64,000 nucleotides of DNA from a virus. Both the position numbers and the translations under genes were made by a program. Below the pieces are notes generated by a model that saw nothing but the letters and a program-made list of their open reading frames with translations, had not been told where the DNA came from and searched no databases. The DNA lies in IMG/VR virus record IMGVR_UViG_3300009164_000039; one strand, written 5' to 3'. Each line of letters begins with the position of its first letter. Position 1 is the stretch's first letter. This document shows, one piece after another, positions 23,532 through 38,040 of this stretch.

Positions 23532-24418
23532 AAACTGTAGACATTGCAGACCTAGATGTAATTTTTCTAACCTACGACGAACCTCGCAGAGAAGAGTCAT
23601 GGGCCAAAATCAAAAACATGGTACCTTGGGCCAAGCGTGTGGATGGCATAAAAGGCAGTGATGCCGCACACAAAGCCGCAGGTGCGGCCAGCGATACAGA
23701 TCGCTTTATACTAATTGACGGCGACAATATTCCTGACCCAGAGTTCTTTAACAAACAAATCACACTGGATCCACATCATGAAAGATGTGTGTTGCGTTGG
23801 AGAGCAAGAAACGCCATCAACGGACTCATGTACGGCAATGGTGGACTCAGCTCGTGGACCAAAAGTTTTGTAGAAAGCATGCGCACACACGAAGCCACTG
23901 ATGGTCGTAATGAAACACTGGTGGAGTTTTGCTTTGAACCTGACTACTGGGCCATGCATGACTGCTACTCAACCACGTATCCTAATGCCAGTCCATTTCA
24001 GGCCTGGCGAGCAGGCTTCCGTGAAGGTGTTAAAATGTGTCTGGATCGCGGAGCAAGACCCAACTTGGACGAGTTTGAAAAACGTGCCCACAATCGTAAT
24101 CTTGATCATTTGACCATTTGGCAAAGTGTGGGTGCTGATGCAGAGAATGGCTTCTGGGCCATATACGGTGCTAGACGTGGCACACAAATGACCATGCTTA
24201 CAGACTGGGATTACACCCAGGTACAAGACTTTGATGAACTGGCAAAACTTTGGACTGTGTACCAAAATGACGGCCCTGACGAATGCACTGAAGTAGGCAA
24301 CATGCTACGCAAACGCCTGGGACTTAACATTGTGGATCTAGACCCCGAACCCAGTGCATTTTTCAAACATCACTACAAGTCAAATTTTGTCAATAGAGGA
24401 ATAATGAGTCGTGAGTAA
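23528..24418 (+). CDS. Glycosyltransferase-like protein (GT2-like fold)
   Basis: 'DVIFLTYDEP...RVDGIKG...AHKAA...RFILIDGDN' with DxD; ATGA-coupled to the upstream gene. Confidence 0.6.
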   Translation: MKTVDIADLDVIFLTYDEPRREESWAKIKNMVPWAKRVDGIKGSDAAHKAAGAASDTDRFILIDGDNIPDPEFFNKQITLDPHHERCVLRWRARNAINGLMYGNGGLSSWTKSFVESMRTHEATDGRNETLVEFCFEPDYWAMHDCYSTTYPNASPFQAWRAGFREGVKMCLDRGARPNLDEFEKRAHNRNLDHLTIWQSVGADAENGFWAIYGARRGTQMTMLTDWDYTQVQDFDELAKLWTVYQNDGPDECTEVGNMLRKRLGLNIVDLDPEPSAFFKHHYKSNFVNRGIMSRE

Positions 24419-25793
24419 AAGTGATTTCATGACAGCCGCAGAACAAATGCGCCACACACTAGGCGAAGGTCTTTGCTTGGCCAAATGGAAACAGGTTAGC
24501 TTGCACTTGCCCACAGGATTGAACAATTCATGCTATCATCCTCCACTACACAAGATTCCTGTGGAACTGCTAGCAGGCAATCCTGGCGCACTGCACAATA
24601 CTCCACATAAAAAAGCTCAGCGCAAGATCATGTTGAAACATGAACGTCCAGACGAGTGTAGTTACTGCTGGTCAGCAGAAGACAATGGACAACTCAGTGA
24701 CAGGCACTACAGGTCAGGCGAGGAGTGGGCCGCAGAGGATCTTGACAAGATATTGGCCTCAACCGGAGACGAAGATGCATTACCTAGCTATGTGGAAGTT
24801 AATTTTAATCATGCTTGTAATCTTAAATGTAGCTATTGCAGTCCGCAATTTAGTTCAAGCTGGGCCGCTGAAGTTGCACAACATGGCGGATTCCCTACGT
24901 CCAGCCCTCACAATAGTCCTGAGTATTTTACTGGTAGTCGTCGCCCTATTCCTGCCCGAGAACACAACCCCTACGTTGATACCTTCTGGGAATGGTGGCC
25001 AGAGCTGTACCCCAAGCTAAGACATTTTAGAATGACAGGTGGTGAGCCACTGATGGATCACAATACCTATCGTGTGTTTGAATACGTGCTGACCTTGCCG
25101 CATCCATTGTTGCATTTGGATGTGACCAGCAACTTCAGTGTGGAGCCTGTGTTGTTTGAAAAGTATCTTGGCTATGTCAAACAGTTATGCAACACACAGA
25201 TTGAACACTTCATGCAGTATGTGAGCCTGGACACCTGGGGCAGTCAAGCAGAGTACATACGCAATGGCATGGACTTTGTGAGAGTGTGTGACTATGTGGA
25301 ACGCTATTTAGAGGAAGTACCCAATCGCAACAGCCTTACGTTTATCATGACCATGAACAATCTCAGTGTCACGGGCATGCATGACATGCTGGATTGGATA
25401 CTGGAACTACGTGCCAAGTACAGTAAAACATATCAGCGTGTGTGGTTTGACACACCGTTGCTGAGACAACCACGTTGGCAAAGCCTGCAGATACTGCCGC
25501 CTGCGTATGCCAACAGAATGAAAATAAACCTAGAGTTCATGCGAGCACACCTAATCACAGATGATAGTTTTGTGGGATTCAAAGATTATGAAATACAGCG
25601 CATGGAACGAGACATTGCCTGGATGACTGAGCCACAAGACGCACAAGAAGTCAATCATGCACGTGCTGACTTCTATAGATTCTTCAACGAACACGACCGT
25701 AGACGCGGTACTAACTTTTTACAAACATTTCCAGAGATGAGCCATTTCTGGTGGGAATGCAAACATCATGCCGAAACTGAACAACGAAACTGA
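24411..25793 (+). CDS. Radical SAM protein with N-terminal twitch/SPASM-like domain (1 of 6)
   Basis: CNLKCSYC motif; 'TGGEPL'; N-terminal 'CLAKW...SCYHP...ECSYCW'. Confidence 0.9.
   Translation: MSKSDFMTAAEQMRHTLGEGLCLAKWKQVSLHLPTGLNNSCYHPPLHKIPVELLAGNPGALHNTPHKKAQRKIMLKHERPDECSYCWSAEDNGQLSDRHYRSGEEWAAEDLDKILASTGDEDALPSYVEVNFNHACNLKCSYCSPQFSSSWAAEVAQHGGFPTSSPHNSPEYFTGSRRPIPAREHNPYVDTFWEWWPELYPKLRHFRMTGGEPLMDHNTYRVFEYVLTLPHPLLHLDVTSNFSVEPVLFEKYLGYVKQLCNTQIEHFMQYVSLDTWGSQAEYIRNGMDFVRVCDYVERYLEEVPNRNSLTFIMTMNNLSVTGMHDMLDWILELRAKYSKTYQRVWFDTPLLRQPRWQSLQILPPAYANRMKINLEFMRAHLITDDSFVGFKDYEIQRMERDIAWMTEPQDAQEVNHARADFYRFFNEHDRRRGTNFLQTFPEMSHFWWECKHHAETEQRN
24775..25020 (+). CDS. Overprinted 81-aa two-TM membrane protein (+1 frame inside radical SAM gene 1)
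   Basis: GGAG at 24765-24768, 6 nt before ATG 24775. Hydrophobic segments 'LILIMLVILNVAIAV' and 'ALTIVLSILLVVVALFL'. Local switch of the host gene to T-ending codons. Confidence 0.55.
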   Translation: MHYLAMWKLILIMLVILNVAIAVRNLVQAGPLKLHNMADSLRPALTIVLSILLVVVALFLPENTTPTLIPSGNGGQSCTPS

Positions 25794-33894: not shown

Positions 33895-34587
33895 ATGAAA
33901 AAAATACTTGTTCTAGCCTGTAGTAGCGGATTGGGCGTCGAATGCGAAGATGTAATCAATCATTGCTGGCCCAACATACTAGGAGACCTTACTAACACCG
34001 CAGTAACCAATGCCTCTGAAGCTGGCGGTAGCAATGACATGATGTATCGCAAAGCACTGTCAATGACTGCAACTGAATCGTATGACCTGGTATTGATTGC
34101 ATGGACAAACATTGATCGCATGGAAGTGTATTTTAACGAAGAGATTGTGTCTAATAGATTACCTGACGTACTAATCAGTGAAAAATTTCCTCGTGTGCAA
34201 GGACCTGGGCCAGTCAGTGTGTCTCATCATTGGAGTGACTTGCCTTGGATTGAAAAATACTATGGCATGCACTATAATGAACGTTACTTACTAGAGCGAT
34301 GGTTGCACCAAGCAATCACACTTCAAGAATATTTCAAAGCCAAAAAACAGCCATTTGCTTACATATCAAACTTTGGAAACACTCAGTATCTAAAAAATCA
34401 TACAGACATTCCTATGTTAAAGATGCTGGATGTAAAATCTTGGATTGGTAACTGGCCTGGGTCAACTTTACGCGACTGGGGTGCACCAATTGGCGTACAC
34501 AAATATGGTCATTTTACGTTAGACGCACATAAATTTATTGCAGAAAAAATACATGAGCATATTAGGAATCGCGGCTGGCTTTCATGA
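33895..34587 (+). CDS. Divergent SGNH-like protein
   Basis: 'LVLACSSGLG', 'NASEAGGSN', 'VLIAWTNIDRME', C-terminal 'GHF...AH'; same layout as 31958..32719. Confidence 0.5.
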   Translation: MKKILVLACSSGLGVECEDVINHCWPNILGDLTNTAVTNASEAGGSNDMMYRKALSMTATESYDLVLIAWTNIDRMEVYFNEEIVSNRLPDVLISEKFPRVQGPGPVSVSHHWSDLPWIEKYYGMHYNERYLLERWLHQAITLQEYFKAKKQPFAYISNFGNTQYLKNHTDIPMLKMLDVKSWIGNWPGSTLRDWGAPIGVHKYGHFTLDAHKFIAEKIHEHIRNRGWLS

Positions 34588-36034
34588 TGCCGCACTAGCG
34601 GTAATTGACAAGCATGGGGACATTGTATTTGCTGGACACAGTGAGCGTTACAGCAAAATCAAACACGACAAAAATTTATCGCCAGGCTTGATTGCCGAAG
34701 TATGCAAATTTGATATACATGAAATAGCATATTATGAACGTCCTTGGGCACAACAGTTGCGTAGATTGTACACCGGCGAAGGAGTAGAGTGGAACAAGCT
34801 CACAGTCCGGCAGATATTAAAAAAACAAATTAACGAGTTCAGTGCATTCTCTGGACCAGTAGTAGCATATCCGCATCATCTGAGTCATGCGGCAGCAGGA
34901 TTTCAAACAAGCCCATTTACCCGTGCCACAGTGGTTGTGATAGACGCTGTAGGTGAATGGGACACAATAACCATCTGGGGCGCAGAATACGATCGCAATG
35001 GACACGCACAGTACAAGAAGTTATGGCAACAAGGTTACCCGCATAGTATAGGATTGTTCTACAGTGCAATGACCCAGCGAGTAGGGTTGAAGCCCCTGGA
35101 CGAAGAATACATTTTGATGGGCATGGCAGCGTATGGTGAGCGTGGCTTTGGTGACCTATTAAAAATGGACATGATAGAATCAGAATTTGACATTCGATTC
35201 AAACACAATCTACACACTGGTATAGATAAAAAATATCTAGCCTACATCAGTGACTTTGATATAGCTGCCGGCGCACAAGATCTTGTGGAAACACTCATAC
35301 TCAATGTTATGCTACGTGCTAAGAAGTTTGGGTGGAGTAGCAATCTGGTGTACGGTGGAGGTGTTGCGCTCAACTGTGCCGCCAATAGATTTTTAGGAGA
35401 ATATTTTGATAACATTTGGATTATGCCTTGTCCTGGTGATGCTGGTTCTAGTCTGGGGGCCGCCGCTGTTAGTTTCCGTGGTTGTATTAATTGGACTGAT
35501 GCTTGTCTTGGGCATGATATACCTGGCGACTATCCTGTTAATGATGCCGTGGCTGCTCTTTTGCGTGGTGATATTATTGGTGTGGCGAGCGGTCGAGCCG
35601 AGTTCGGCCCGAGAGCGTTGGGAAACAGAAGTCTCCTCGCAGACCCAAGAGGAACAGAAATCAAAGACAAAGTAAATGAAATCAAACGTAGACAAAAGTT
35701 TAGACCCTTTGCACCCGTTGTATTGGAAGAGATGGCTGATCAGTATTTTACTATGCCTCGCGGGTGGGATCGCAGTCGGTACATGCAGTCAGTCGCTGAC
35801 TGTAGGCATCCTGAGTTATTTCCTGCTATTGTTCACGCTGACGGAACTAGTCGTGTTCAGACCGTACCGAAAGATGGAAGCGGAATTAGAGAGCTCCTTG
35901 AAAAATGGTTCGTGTTAACTGATTGTCCTATGTTGCTAAACACCAGCCTAAACATACGTGGCGAACCTATGGTCAATGATCGTGCTGACGCAGACCGCTT
36001 TGAAAAGTTATATGGCATAAAGGTCTACAGTTAA
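34553..36034 (+). CDS. O-carbamoyltransferase, NodU/CmcH/TobZ family
   Basis: 'GFHDAA', 'HHLSHAA', 'VIDAVGE', 'EYILMGMAAYG', 'GRAEFGPRALGNRSLLADP', 'FRPFAP', 'HADGTSRVQTV', 'LLNTSLN'. Confidence 0.95.
   Translation: MSILGIAAGFHDAALAVIDKHGDIVFAGHSERYSKIKHDKNLSPGLIAEVCKFDIHEIAYYERPWAQQLRRLYTGEGVEWNKLTVRQILKKQINEFSAFSGPVVAYPHHLSHAAAGFQTSPFTRATVVVIDAVGEWDTITIWGAEYDRNGHAQYKKLWQQGYPHSIGLFYSAMTQRVGLKPLDEEYILMGMAAYGERGFGDLLKMDMIESEFDIRFKHNLHTGIDKKYLAYISDFDIAAGAQDLVETLILNVMLRAKKFGWSSNLVYGGGVALNCAANRFLGEYFDNIWIMPCPGDAGSSLGAAAVSFRGCINWTDACLGHDIPGDYPVNDAVAALLRGDIIGVASGRAEFGPRALGNRSLLADPRGTEIKDKVNEIKRRQKFRPFAPVVLEEMADQYFTMPRGWDRSRYMQSVADCRHPELFPAIVHADGTSRVQTVPKDGSGIRELLEKWFVLTDCPMLLNTSLNIRGEPMVNDRADADRFEKLYGIKVYS
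35406..35675 (+). CDS. Overprinted 89-aa multi-TM protein (+1 frame inside the carbamoyltransferase), holin-like architecture
   Basis: AGGAGA at 35395-35400, 5 nt before TTG 35406. First 60 residues contain no charged amino acid; charged C-terminal tail. Confidence 0.6.
   Translation: MITFGLCLVLVMLVLVWGPPLLVSVVVLIGLMLVLGMIYLATILLMMPWLLFCVVILLVWRAVEPSSARERWETEVSSQTQEEQKSKTK
35676..35918 (+). CDS. Overprinted 80-aa two-TM protein coupled to 35406..35675
   Basis: TAA (35673-35675) is directly followed by ATG (35676). TM-like 'WLISILLCLAGGIAVG' and 'LTVGILSYFLLLFTLTELVVF'. Confidence 0.5.
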   Translation: MKSNVDKSLDPLHPLYWKRWLISILLCLAGGIAVGTCSQSLTVGILSYFLLLFTLTELVVFRPYRKMEAELESSLKNGSC

Positions 36035-38040
36035 TGTATGATGTATTTTATACCGGCACAGCACCTGGCGTGTTTGCACACGAACGCAGTGCCAACAACA
36101 TTGAACACGCACAGCAACTGAGTCGTACACGTTACTTCTGGTGGGTAACTGCACATTGTGACTACACCGACTTTGATTTTTACTTCACACCTGTACCTTG
36201 GCAAGGAGACTTCACGCATGTATGGCCCACACAATGGAAAGAGTTCTTTGGTGCATACCTTGTGCCCACCAACAGTAAACAACTAAACTATCACCACCAC
36301 AGTGAAGTGTTACCTCCGCGGCAGCATCCAGAGCACTATACAAAACTAATCAACTGCGAGTTTGATACTGAGTGGGTTCCGCATCCTTGGGACCCACCTT
36401 ACATCTATGTGTTTGGTAACCAGTGGTACCCAGCAGAGAAAATGCCCACTGTTGAATATCATGCGCCGGGTGCAACTGAGCGCAAGTTCATGCCGTGGCC
36501 ACGTGCGCAACTGGTTCCTGACACTACATTATGGACAGTGCCAGAAGGCATTGATCCCGGCGACGTGGATTTTTCATGGGTGCCCGATCCGGGCTCACCT
36601 CCATATATCTATCAGTTTGCCACACAGCATCAGAAAACAGGTGGCCCACAATATCGTATGCCCGGTGCAACTGAAGTAAAGTATGTGGAACAAGTAAAGG
36701 TACGCACCAGTCGTGTGGCTACAGCCGTTTATGAAATTGATCACAGTGACGGCAACACCGGGTATGTTCCAAACATTACTCGACGTATTCGATTCTTTGA
36801 CAACTACAAGGACACACTGATACGTCTGGCAACCAGTATAGGCGATGAACATGACTTTGTGTGGATATGTAGCAGTGCGTGTGACTACACAAACTTTGAC
36901 TTCACATGGCACCCAGAACAATGGCAAGCTACTATGTTGCATGTGTTCCCAAGCAACGACCAAAAGTTTGGAGACACATTCTTCATGCATGTGCCCACCT
37001 TTAGAGCACGTGCTGAACAGTACGAATTGTTAGATTGGTATGACCTAAACTTCTGCACCGACCAGTTAGTGCCACGCAGACCATTTCCATGTGTTGAATA
37101 TTCTGGATCCAGTGTTGTACCAGTTATTCGCGAGCATGAGTTTTTGGCCCCGTATACGTTATTTCAGCATACCTTGTACAGTTCAACACAAGTACATGCT
37201 AGTCCGAGCCTGTGGAGTAAAAAACACCGTGAACTGATTACATTTAGCGCAGGAAACAGCGCCGCACTAGTGCCTAAAGATGTAAAACAACACCTTGAGA
37301 CACAGGTTTATGACTACCCTTGGATCAAGAAAAGTAACGATCGCTTGCCCGAACTGCCACAAGACATTGTGTTTATCAGTTACGATGAATTGAATGCAGA
37401 TCAAAACTATCACAATCTTGTGAGCCGTTTTTCAAATGCCAAACGAGTACACGGTGTTGAAGGAATGGTTGCGGCACTAGAAGCAGCCGCACGTGCTAGC
37501 ACAACTGATTGGTTCTATGCAGTGTTTGCCAAGACACAGGTACATGAGTCATTTGTGTTTGACTTTGCACCAGATCGTTTCCAACAACCCAAGCATTACA
37601 TATTCTATGCTATCAATGCAGTGAATGATCTAGTGTATGGAGAAATGGGCATCATCTTATACAACCGTCAAATGGTACTGGACGGTCCTGCTGAACTGGG
37701 CATTGACTATACCATGAGCTTTCCAAATGAAACCATACCGCAAATCAGTGCTTACGGTAACTTCAACACAGATCCATATCAGACCTGGCGTACTGCATTC
37801 CGTGAAACTGCAAAACTATGTTTGTTCCAGTATCAGACACCCAGCGTGGAAACAGAACACAGACTTGGTACATGGTTGTCACACGCACGTGGTGCGCATG
37901 CTGAGTGGGCATTGCGTGGTGCGCAGGACGGAAAACAATTCTTTGAAGAAGTAGGTGCAGACGAAGCGCAACTAAAAGCAATGTTTAGTTGGAAATGGTT
38001 ACGTGAACGCTACTGTAGTCTTTACGAAAAAACTTCTTGA
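36034..38040 (+). CDS. Modular glycosyltransferase-like protein (668 aa)
   Basis: C-terminal domain from about 37363 is paralogous to 23528..24418 ('DIVFISYDE...KRVHGVEG...AA.AS.TDWF', 'TWRTAFRE..K'); repeated N-terminal modules. Confidence 0.6.
   Translation: MYDVFYTGTAPGVFAHERSANNIEHAQQLSRTRYFWWVTAHCDYTDFDFYFTPVPWQGDFTHVWPTQWKEFFGAYLVPTNSKQLNYHHHSEVLPPRQHPEHYTKLINCEFDTEWVPHPWDPPYIYVFGNQWYPAEKMPTVEYHAPGATERKFMPWPRAQLVPDTTLWTVPEGIDPGDVDFSWVPDPGSPPYIYQFATQHQKTGGPQYRMPGATEVKYVEQVKVRTSRVATAVYEIDHSDGNTGYVPNITRRIRFFDNYKDTLIRLATSIGDEHDFVWICSSACDYTNFDFTWHPEQWQATMLHVFPSNDQKFGDTFFMHVPTFRARAEQYELLDWYDLNFCTDQLVPRRPFPCVEYSGSSVVPVIREHEFLAPYTLFQHTLYSSTQVHASPSLWSKKHRELITFSAGNSAALVPKDVKQHLETQVYDYPWIKKSNDRLPELPQDIVFISYDELNADQNYHNLVSRFSNAKRVHGVEGMVAALEAAARASTTDWFYAVFAKTQVHESFVFDFAPDRFQQPKHYIFYAINAVNDLVYGEMGIILYNRQMVLDGPAELGIDYTMSFPNETIPQISAYGNFNTDPYQTWRTAFRETAKLCLFQYQTPSVETEHRLGTWLSHARGAHAEWALRGAQDGKQFFEEVGADEAQLKAMFSWKWLRERYCSLYEKTS

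Follow-up and report, generated by a model that had tools for sequence, protein, structure and literature searches.

In the stretch of DNA analysed here (the window), 64,000 nucleotides of the IMG/VR virus record IMGVR_UViG_3300009164_000039, the gene of a Nol/NodU-type carbamoyltransferase encloses two open reading frames (ORFs), ORF-A and ORF-B, which directly follow each other in its +1 frame and are predicted to encode small membrane proteins. ORF-A is probably a real overprinted gene, which would be translated from an AGGAG sequence and a TTG codon of its own to give a membrane peptide, and ORF-B would very likely be a translated and selected membrane protein. ORF-B is the better supported of the two. 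In relatives of the enzyme gene, the frames and their initiation signals are conserved, and selection acts on the class of the nested residues; translation, membrane insertion and a function of the two products are inferred. With a signal extending over 135 diverged natural sequences, this is among the better comparative cases obtainable without experiment.

The proposed route of expression would start from the operon mRNA, on which the +1 frame of carbamoyltransferase codons 290-379 would be translated from the AGGAG and the TTG. The product, 71-89 residues long and almost purely hydrophobic, would reside in the inner membrane of the host with two or three helices. Third codon positions of the enzyme gene, rich in T here, are second positions of ORF-A, and one stretch of DNA would thereby specify a soluble linker as well as transmembrane (TM) helices. 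ORF-B, predicted to be a two-helix membrane protein, would be made next, from its own AAGGA and ATG in the relatives and by reinitiation at an abutting TAA-ATG in this phage.

Layout and composition of the nested frames

The features concerned are the following, with positions counted from the first letter of the window.

34538..36034, + strand: coding sequence of the Nol/NodU-type carbamoyltransferase (the enclosing gene), identified by Pfam and PHROG matches
35394..35401, + strand: TAG of the +1 frame, overlapping the AGGAG(AA) Shine-Dalgarno (SD)-like motif of ORF-A; direct reading
35406..35675, + strand: ORF-A, TTG start, 89 codons, TAA at 35673-35675; in the +1 frame of the carbamoyltransferase gene and wholly inside it
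35406..35585, + strand: hydrophobic core of ORF-A, residues 1-60, with room for two to three TM helices; coincides with a patch of the enclosing gene that is rich in T and poor in A at third codon positions (T3 and A3, respectively)
35586..35672, + strand: charged C-terminal tail of ORF-A, overlying GRAEFGPRALG of the enzyme; without T3 excess and not conserved
35673..35678, + strand: TAA-ATG junction, the stop of ORF-A abutting the start of ORF-B in the same frame; direct reading
35676..35918, + strand: ORF-B, ATG start, 80 codons, in the same +1 frame directly after the TAA of ORF-A; polar N-terminus, two predicted TM helices, charged tail
35393..35695, - strand: antisense ORF of 100 codons with a low-complexity product rich in T, S, I, R and N; not a gene candidate

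The start region of ORF-A was found as described in an earlier note made from the letters of the window, in which the ORF had been proposed as a holin-like nested gene: a TAG in its frame (35394-35396) overlaps the AGGAG (35395-35399), which is followed, after a spacer of 6 nucleotides (nt), by the TTG at 35406. Ordinary genes of the window also use AGGAG or AAGGA as SD sequences at this spacing. The sixty uncharged residues reported there, followed by a charged tail, were confirmed as well; residues 1-60 (62 if counted from the preceding stop) contain no D, E, K or R and have a mean Kyte-Doolittle hydropathy of 2.5, and the final 29 residues are highly charged. The placement of the ORF over the inter-domain linker and the GRAEFGPRALG motif also holds, since the core overlies enzyme residues 290-350, which comprise the end of the N-domain, the linker and the start of the C-domain, and the tail overlies the motif at residues 352-362. 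Within the hydrophobic run, Gly-Pro-Pro is found at residues 18-20 and a further proline at residue 48; two to three helices are possible. The AlphaFold2 model of ORF-A is one continuous helix from residue 3 to 88, which, at a predicted template modelling (pTM) score of 0.33, is uninformative on topology.

The second base of each +1 codon is the third base of a codon of the enclosing gene, and T-rich third positions of the latter therefore yield hydrophobic residues and no stops. Over the 60 core codons, T3 of the enclosing gene reaches 0.72-0.73, compared to a mean of 0.31 (standard deviation 0.07) in 15,278 sliding windows across the whole stretch and to a maximum of 0.57 in any other of its genes. 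From the amino acids of the enzyme and the codon usage of the phage, a T3 of 0.36 would be expected, or 0.38 if the next base is taken into account (z about 6), and 20,000 synonymous resamplings gave at most 0.60 against the observed 0.72. Many of the T-ending codons in the core are the disfavoured option for their context. Among about 50 genes of the window, ORF-A is the longest uncharged off-frame run, the runner-up having 36 residues and a hydropathy of 0.6. The length of ORF-A is by itself unremarkable (P = 0.07 by synonymous resampling); an uncharged run of at least 60 residues is obtained with P = 0.0025 per resampled gene. ORF-A is not a composition artefact.

Two other causes of the T3 excess were considered and rejected. 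A bias imposed by the next base raises the expected T3 merely from 0.36 to 0.38, and translational-accuracy codon bias at conserved residues is at odds with the lack of any T3 excess in the most conserved motif of the enzyme. The dependence on context as such is seen window-wide, T3 being 0.44 if the next codon begins with G and 0.22-0.29 otherwise; TTT, for example, is chosen before G in 95% of cases and ATT in 79%. The antisense ORF listed above is a mechanical by-product of the T-rich third positions, as follows from the genetic code: T at codon position 3 of the enclosing gene gives A at codon position 1 of the antisense frame, which keeps it free of stops.

Nested frames in related carbamoyltransferase genes

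A search of known phage DNA with the window returned a match of 154 nt only, so no close relative is available there, and in any collection the nearest protein relatives of the carbamoyltransferase are 72-74% identical, which rules out a classical within-species test of the ratio of nonsynonymous to synonymous substitution rates (dN/dS). Two sets of relatives were compiled. Set 1 consists of 80 IMG/VR loci, equivalent to 67 unique sequences, with carbamoyltransferases 62-72% identical to that of the window; set 2 consists of 68 further unique sequences from metagenome contigs with a maximum identity of 74%, giving 135 sequences in all. Among the 67 relatives of set 1, which form 41 clusters, identity at four-fold sites is 0.35, compared to 0.28 by chance. 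Synonymous sites are thus near saturation, and the relatives serve as many nearly independent trials.

In 108 of the 135 relatives, the frame of ORF-A runs through 60 or more codons without a stop. In set 1 it is open in 50 of 67 sequences, while synonymous resampling predicts 0.37 (a chance of 0.5% per sequence), and set 2 replicates this result with 58 of 68. Interruption in close relatives, named in the earlier note as evidence against a nested gene, is therefore not the rule. The SD of ORF-A depends on a glycine codon of the enzyme, which is GGA in 50 of 67 sequences against 13.8 expected and constitutes the fourth most constrained synonymous column of the gene; taking both sets together, GGA, which creates GGAG upstream of ORF-A, occurs in 100 of 135 sequences, though it is disfavoured before G. 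Where the SD is present, ORF-A is intact in 76 and broken in 8 sequences; where it is absent, the numbers are 32 and 19, respectively (Fisher test, 2.5e-4). With the frame open in most relatives and the SD kept at synonymous sites, the claim of a nested gene is supported.

In the 67 relatives of set 1, the T3 excess is limited to codons ~285-350 and ~400-435 of the enclosing gene, which are the hydrophobic parts of ORF-A and ORF-B, respectively, and it is missing from the most conserved motif of the enzyme, located between the two patches. Sorted by the residue that they specify in the nested frame, codons of the ORF-A core are depleted for charged residues (observed/expected 0.51) and for N, Q and H (0.39), with ratios of 0.91 for proline, 0.83 for S, T and Y and 1.08 for A, C and W, while glycine (1.68) and F, I, L, M and V (1.45) are enriched; in control codons, all of these classes fall between 0.90 and 1.06. 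Since the enriched nested glycines come from G-ending codons of the enzyme, a plain preference for T does not fit. Selection tracks the class of the nested residue and not merely T.

The more stops the ORF-A frame contains, the weaker the T3 excess and the rarer the SD. Lineages with five to eight stops have no SD and little or no T3 excess, and their enzyme is intact, from which it is evident that the enzyme itself does not need the T3 pattern. No difference in GC content at third positions (GC3) was found between lineages with intact and with broken frames. Distant carbamoyltransferases of at most 47% identity, namely those of phage RsoM2USA, a marine single-cell virus, phage C48C1, a Pelagibacter phage and two cyanophages, have a stop-riddled +1 frame and lack a comparable T3 patch; an open hydrophobic frame of this kind, which the earlier note would have taken as contrary evidence in bacterial homologues of similar base composition, was thus not seen in these distant ones. 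In most relatives, ORF-A comprises 71 residues, with a polar loop after helix 1 and about 11 mixed residues at its end; the charged tail is confined to this phage and a minority of the relatives.

ORF-B was located through the second T3 patch. AlphaFold2 predicts helices at residues 12-35 and 39-78. Its ATG is found in 94% of the relatives, compared to 54% under the null, and the valine codon of the enzyme at the junction is GTA in 56 of 67 sequences, compared to 24.8 expected. The frame is open in 51 of 67 sequences of set 1, where synonymous resampling gives 3.1, and in 59 of 68 of set 2. A lysine codon of the enzyme is AAG in 51 of 67 sequences (22.6 expected), which creates an AAGGA SD 8 nt before the ATG of ORF-B; with this SD, 104 sequences have an intact and 8 a broken ORF-B, without it 4 and 18, respectively (Fisher test, 9e-13). 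When the synonymous columns of the gene are ranked by constraint, 28 of the top 30 lie at or beyond codon 286, mostly inside or just before ORF-B, and synonymous differences of the enzyme over ORF-B amount to 0.77-0.85 of control. Rare codons of the enclosing gene are used to keep nested residues; an example is the valine codon GTC, present in 35 of 46 sequences, which specifies a serine in the inter-helix turn of ORF-B. In this phage, ORF-B lacks the SD, with AAA GAC in place of the AAG GAy of the relatives, and its initiation here probably relies on the abutting TAA-ATG by termination-reinitiation. Where the earlier note had a single nested gene, ORF-A itself was borne out, but another nested ORF, which has the better support, follows it in tandem.

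Alternative explanations and known nested genes

A low-specificity TM peptide or a young overprinted gene would fit the pattern of ORF-A, which is open, hydrophobic and led by an SD. Several points weigh against taking it for a gene and leave room for a non-protein explanation. In the ORF-A core, synonymous differences of the enzyme, at 0.94-0.95 of control, are not clearly reduced, and the ORF-A alignment has a mean column identity of 47%, meaning that composition and openness are conserved and not the sequence. ORF-A is interrupted in about 20% of lineages, and among relatives without the SD the frame is still open in 32, with 19 broken. The Fisher tests of SD presence against integrity, for ORF-A as for ORF-B, ignore the phylogeny of the relatives. 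The TTG is uninformative as evidence, because TTT is in any case the default codon before G. No free-standing homologue of ORF-A was found, neither by a single-sequence search of 5.8 billion proteins nor by a profile search. The latter gave four matches, of which the two looked up, P0002 and P0004, are nested copies on the frameshift-ridden JGI contigs L087 and L088 and thus no independent evidence for ORF-A. The function proposed below, finally, is taken with low confidence from the gene neighbourhood only. In contigs of the sample concerned (JGI sample 3300071517; L087 and L088, P0010, P0017 and P0021), the carbamoyltransferase is spread over three frames, which points to indel errors and, as their result, chimeric 'proteins' of enzyme and nested frame in public sets.

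If ORF-A were no functional protein, a constraint on the enzyme gene at the level of nucleotides or translation would favour T3 and disfavour A3, and the open frame would be a by-product. Such a constraint might lie in an RNA feature, in a pause site resembling an SD inside the gene or in codons chosen at the domain boundary to assist co-translational folding; even taken jointly, these candidates are unlikely to account for the pattern. They would agree with a constraint on ORF-A that is compositional only, with a T3 patch that spans the inter-domain linker, with a T3 of 0.62-0.65 retained by some lineages with three stops and with similar T3 patches in another enzyme gene of the operon. They would not explain why depletion follows the hydrophilicity of the nested residue while G-ending codons for nested glycine are enriched, why the chosen codons end in T whether they are common or rare, instead of being simply rare, or why the most conserved enzyme motif directly downstream shows no excess. 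Many-stop lineages devoid of the SD drop the excess yet retain the enzyme, distant carbamoyltransferases lack the patch, the presence of the SD correlates with the integrity of the ORF-A frame, and the frame continues into ORF-B, which belongs to a genuine gene family. ORF-A might also be translated into a peptide without a function of its own, as a leader whose role would be either to bring ribosomes into the +1 frame for ORF-B or to draw the mRNA to the membrane via the hydrophobic nascent chain. This very improbable reading takes up the low sequence constraint of ORF-A, the SD-less start of ORF-B right at the ORF-A stop in this phage and the joint loss of both frames, ORF-B being broken in ~47% of lineages with a broken ORF-A and in ~18% of those with an intact one (hand count); it is countered by the selection of hydrophobicity beyond stop avoidance, by the relatives, in most of which ORF-A stops 18 codons before an ORF-B with an SD of its own, and by free-standing ORF-B homologues that do without any ORF-A. 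That the hydrophobic stretch is reached by programmed +1 frameshifting, which would fuse the N-domain to a membrane anchor, is hardly credible. Apart from the shared strand and a T-rich TAT TTT G just before the ORF, nothing speaks for it; the TAG in the +1 frame three codons before the TTG, which most relatives keep within xTA GGA, leaves the ribosome no space in which to shift, and instead of a known slippery motif it is an SD at initiation spacing that is conserved. ORF-A is best read as an overprinted gene with a product that is likely a translated and selected membrane peptide.

The identification of this product as holin-like, made in the earlier note, found no support. Class I holins are proteins of about 90-125 residues with three TM helices (N-out, C-in) and a charged C-terminus. 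As a holin of this type, ORF-A would build up in the inner membrane and open holes through which the endolysin would be released at the end of infection, and its size and strong hydrophobicity, which allow two to three TM helices, as well as the charged C-terminal tail in this phage would be in keeping with such a role. There are precedents for nested or overlapping lysis genes in phiX174 E and lambda Rz1, and with no holin of this phage group identified in the analysis the role is vacant. The proposal is nevertheless improbable. Among 49 ORF-A members, no match to any of the Pfam holin families was obtained, and that of one of 49 ORF-B members to Phage_holin_3_7 (E = 0.012) is noise; PHROGs and NCBIfam gave nothing relevant. 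No endolysin, spanin, holin or lysozyme/peptidase-type family was found among 35 distinct window proteins scanned, and the neighbours are radical S-adenosylmethionine (SAM) enzymes, an aminotransferase, an epimerase and tail-fibre-like genes. Most relatives, ending at residue 71, lack the charged tail. A dual-start motif is missing, the single TTG following the TAG; the next in-frame starts, at codons 11-12, have no SD and would remove helix 1. Loss of ORF-A in about 20% of lineages would, moreover, be unexpected for a sole holin. Weak matches to PHROG 944 (E = 0.003), which for ORF-A reads 'membrane protein' only, to Pfam EMC6 (10 ORF-B members) and to NCBIfam PspB (E = 0.086) were treated as composition effects. 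In the ESM Atlas, ORF-A came closest to the PspG cluster, with 0.84, which is under the lead threshold of 0.9, and ORF-B reached unnamed clusters only. Prediction of a complex of ORF-A and ORF-B gave a score of 0.00, which is evidence neither way.

Embedded genes are classic in tiny phages, as exemplified by phiX174 E, and in lysis cassettes, as exemplified by Rz1. To our knowledge, they are assumed to be rare in large double-stranded DNA (dsDNA) phages, where space is not limiting, and are discarded by gene callers. The closest parallel to ORF-A is gene E within gene D of phiX174, which is also a gene of about 90 codons in the +1 frame, wholly inside another and younger than the latter, and uses the same conversion of T-rich third positions into second positions, by which a leucine-rich TM segment is obtained (PMC8227390). 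A single TM helix and a known target in cell-wall synthesis characterise the product of E, whereas ORF-A has room for two to three helices. Unlike in phiX174, the present nested genes occur in a large dsDNA phage without need for compression, they are two in tandem inside an auxiliary tailoring enzyme gene, and they are probably not lysis genes. Rz1 within Rz of lambda is likewise an embedded +1-frame gene of a dsDNA phage that is routinely missed by gene callers; however, Rz1 (the o-spanin) is a secreted lipoprotein that acts with the product of its enclosing gene, the i-spanin Rz, whereas ORF-A and ORF-B are predicted integral membrane peptides inside the gene of an unrelated soluble enzyme. 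Embedded, overlapped and separated architectures all exist among spanins, and no spanin family mixes embedded with separated members (PMC6139136), in contrast to the ORF-B family, which has both. Class I and II holins such as lambda S105 and S68 of phage 21 share with ORF-A the small size and, in this phage, the charged tail, and the hydrophobic run of ORF-A has room for their two to three TM helices, while ORF-A is without their family match, lysis-cassette context, dual start or conserved tail.

Literature searches of limited coverage gave no earlier description of nested genes, either in phage carbamoyltransferases or in jumbo phages. The present case differs from these systems in the large dsDNA phage, the auxiliary enzyme as carrier, the tandem of nested membrane genes differing in constraint and a nested family with free-standing members. 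With the latter at hand, the question whether overprinted genes become independent genes is directly testable. Auxiliary enzyme genes of jumbo phages may conceal small membrane proteins, for which T-rich patches at third positions would be a cheap finder.

Free-standing homologues and operon setting

When 1.8 billion proteins were searched with a profile built from 49 ORF-B sequences, small free-standing homologues of 61-79 residues were retrieved, with profile E-values from 8.5e-9 to 2.5e-4. They belong to an unnamed family (P0018, P0020, P0022, P0023 and P0025-P0027) and are encoded by ordinary non-overlapping genes, among them the following, with products of 62-79 residues.

L089, 2101-2304: free-standing ORF-B homologue
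L091, 957-1157: free-standing ORF-B homologue
L095, 4001-4189: free-standing ORF-B homologue
L092, 4001-4240: free-standing ORF-B homologue
L090, 491-697: free-standing ORF-B homologue

Like ORF-B, these proteins have the motif D-x-L-R-x-x-F-W-R/K, an acidic tail and two TM helices in which G/S/Y positions are conserved. They differ from the nested ORFs in that their genes do not overlap another one, that none of them resembles ORF-A and that none has an ORF-A-like neighbour. P0020, P0026 and P0027 are encoded in the same operon neighbourhood as ORF-B. On L089 and L091, which have no carbamoyltransferase gene there, the free-standing gene occupies the operon position of ORF-B, flanked by a radical SAM gene on one side and by the counterpart of the window gene 36034..38040 on the other, and on L095 such a gene directly follows homologues of tail-fibre genes of the window. 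ORF-B and its free-standing homologues are always found among tail-fibre and tailoring genes, including those for radical SAM enzymes, an FkbM-type methyltransferase, an acetyltransferase and the 668-residue protein encoded by 36034..38040. A likeness of the region upstream of the free-standing ORF-B gene on L089 to that of the nested copies (ATCAAGGA...TAAATG) was not used as evidence, since SD constraint may suffice to explain it and L091 lacks it.

The N-terminal motif S-D-P-L-R-x-x-F-W-R of ORF-B is the +1 reading of the enzyme hallmark F-R-P-F-A-P-x-x-L-E-E. That the free-standing homologues keep this motif suggests a possible birth by overprinting and subsequent escape. The carbamoyltransferase domain is ancient, with homologues in phages and bacteria. 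A further nested candidate is found in the window inside the radical SAM gene 24411-25793; it is a +1-frame ORF with two predicted TM helices (24775-25020, + strand, 81 codons) and GGAGA upstream. In 73 relatives, T3 of this radical SAM gene peaks at codons 120-140 and 160-180 with 0.50-0.59, compared to ~0.3, the nested frame is mostly open for 67-86 codons, and its ATG is kept in about half. Nested +1 ORFs may thus be present operon-wide. As a tentative scenario, the carbamoyltransferase gene might have served as a cradle of de novo genes, in which the ORF-B family would have been born by overprinting and freed upon loss of the enzyme, with ORF-A as its younger or less constrained sibling; together with the ORF nested in 24411..25793, they might form a hidden membrane module for glycan tailoring that is invisible to annotation pipelines.

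The setting of ORF-A and ORF-B is a glycan-tailoring operon and not a lysis cassette. Family scans of the 35 distinct proteins identified a run of radical SAM genes, sugar aminotransferases and an epimerase, and genes for ThyA, dihydrofolate reductase (DHFR) and QueD/QueE-like proteins are also encoded in the window. With ORF-B and its homologues always in such company, a membrane component of the pathway is the most economical guess for its function. The two products are therefore proposed, with low confidence and from their neighbourhood only, to be small membrane components of the tail-fibre/glycan-tailoring operon, which might anchor or organise its enzymes or handle a lipid-linked substrate. 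The gene 36034-38040 (+ strand), located directly behind the carbamoyltransferase gene, encodes a protein of 668 residues with repeated W-x-P-x-P-x-x-P-P-Y-I-Y-x-F motifs, for which no match was obtained in Pfam, NCBIfam or PDB sequences. Homologues of this gene lie directly 3' of free-standing ORF-B genes, and the two products may work together.

The carbamoyltransferase itself is well defined by its Pfam domains Carbam_trans_N (residues 100-309, 2e-37) and Carbam_trans_C (residues 340-487, 4e-47) and by its match to PHROG 1601 (2e-89); its closest named relative is the enzyme of the jumbo Ralstonia phage RsoM2USA, with 45% identity. The ORF is listed from a TTG at 34538, and the alignments of most relatives begin at residue 6. 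Its start is probably the ATG at 34553 (M-S-I-L-G-I...), which would leave little of the overlap with the DUF6071 gene upstream. The window as a whole reads as part of the genome of a large uncultured phage and includes an ORF of 3,700 codons and tail-fibre-like genes. Among the proteins retrieved with the ORF-B profile, P0024 (203 residues) has an ORF-B-like module with two TM helices at its C-terminus (E = 4.7e-6), and its N-terminal part resembles, by eye, a response-regulator receiver domain; the ORF-B-like module may also be present in cellular proteins, or the match may be due to chance or composition.

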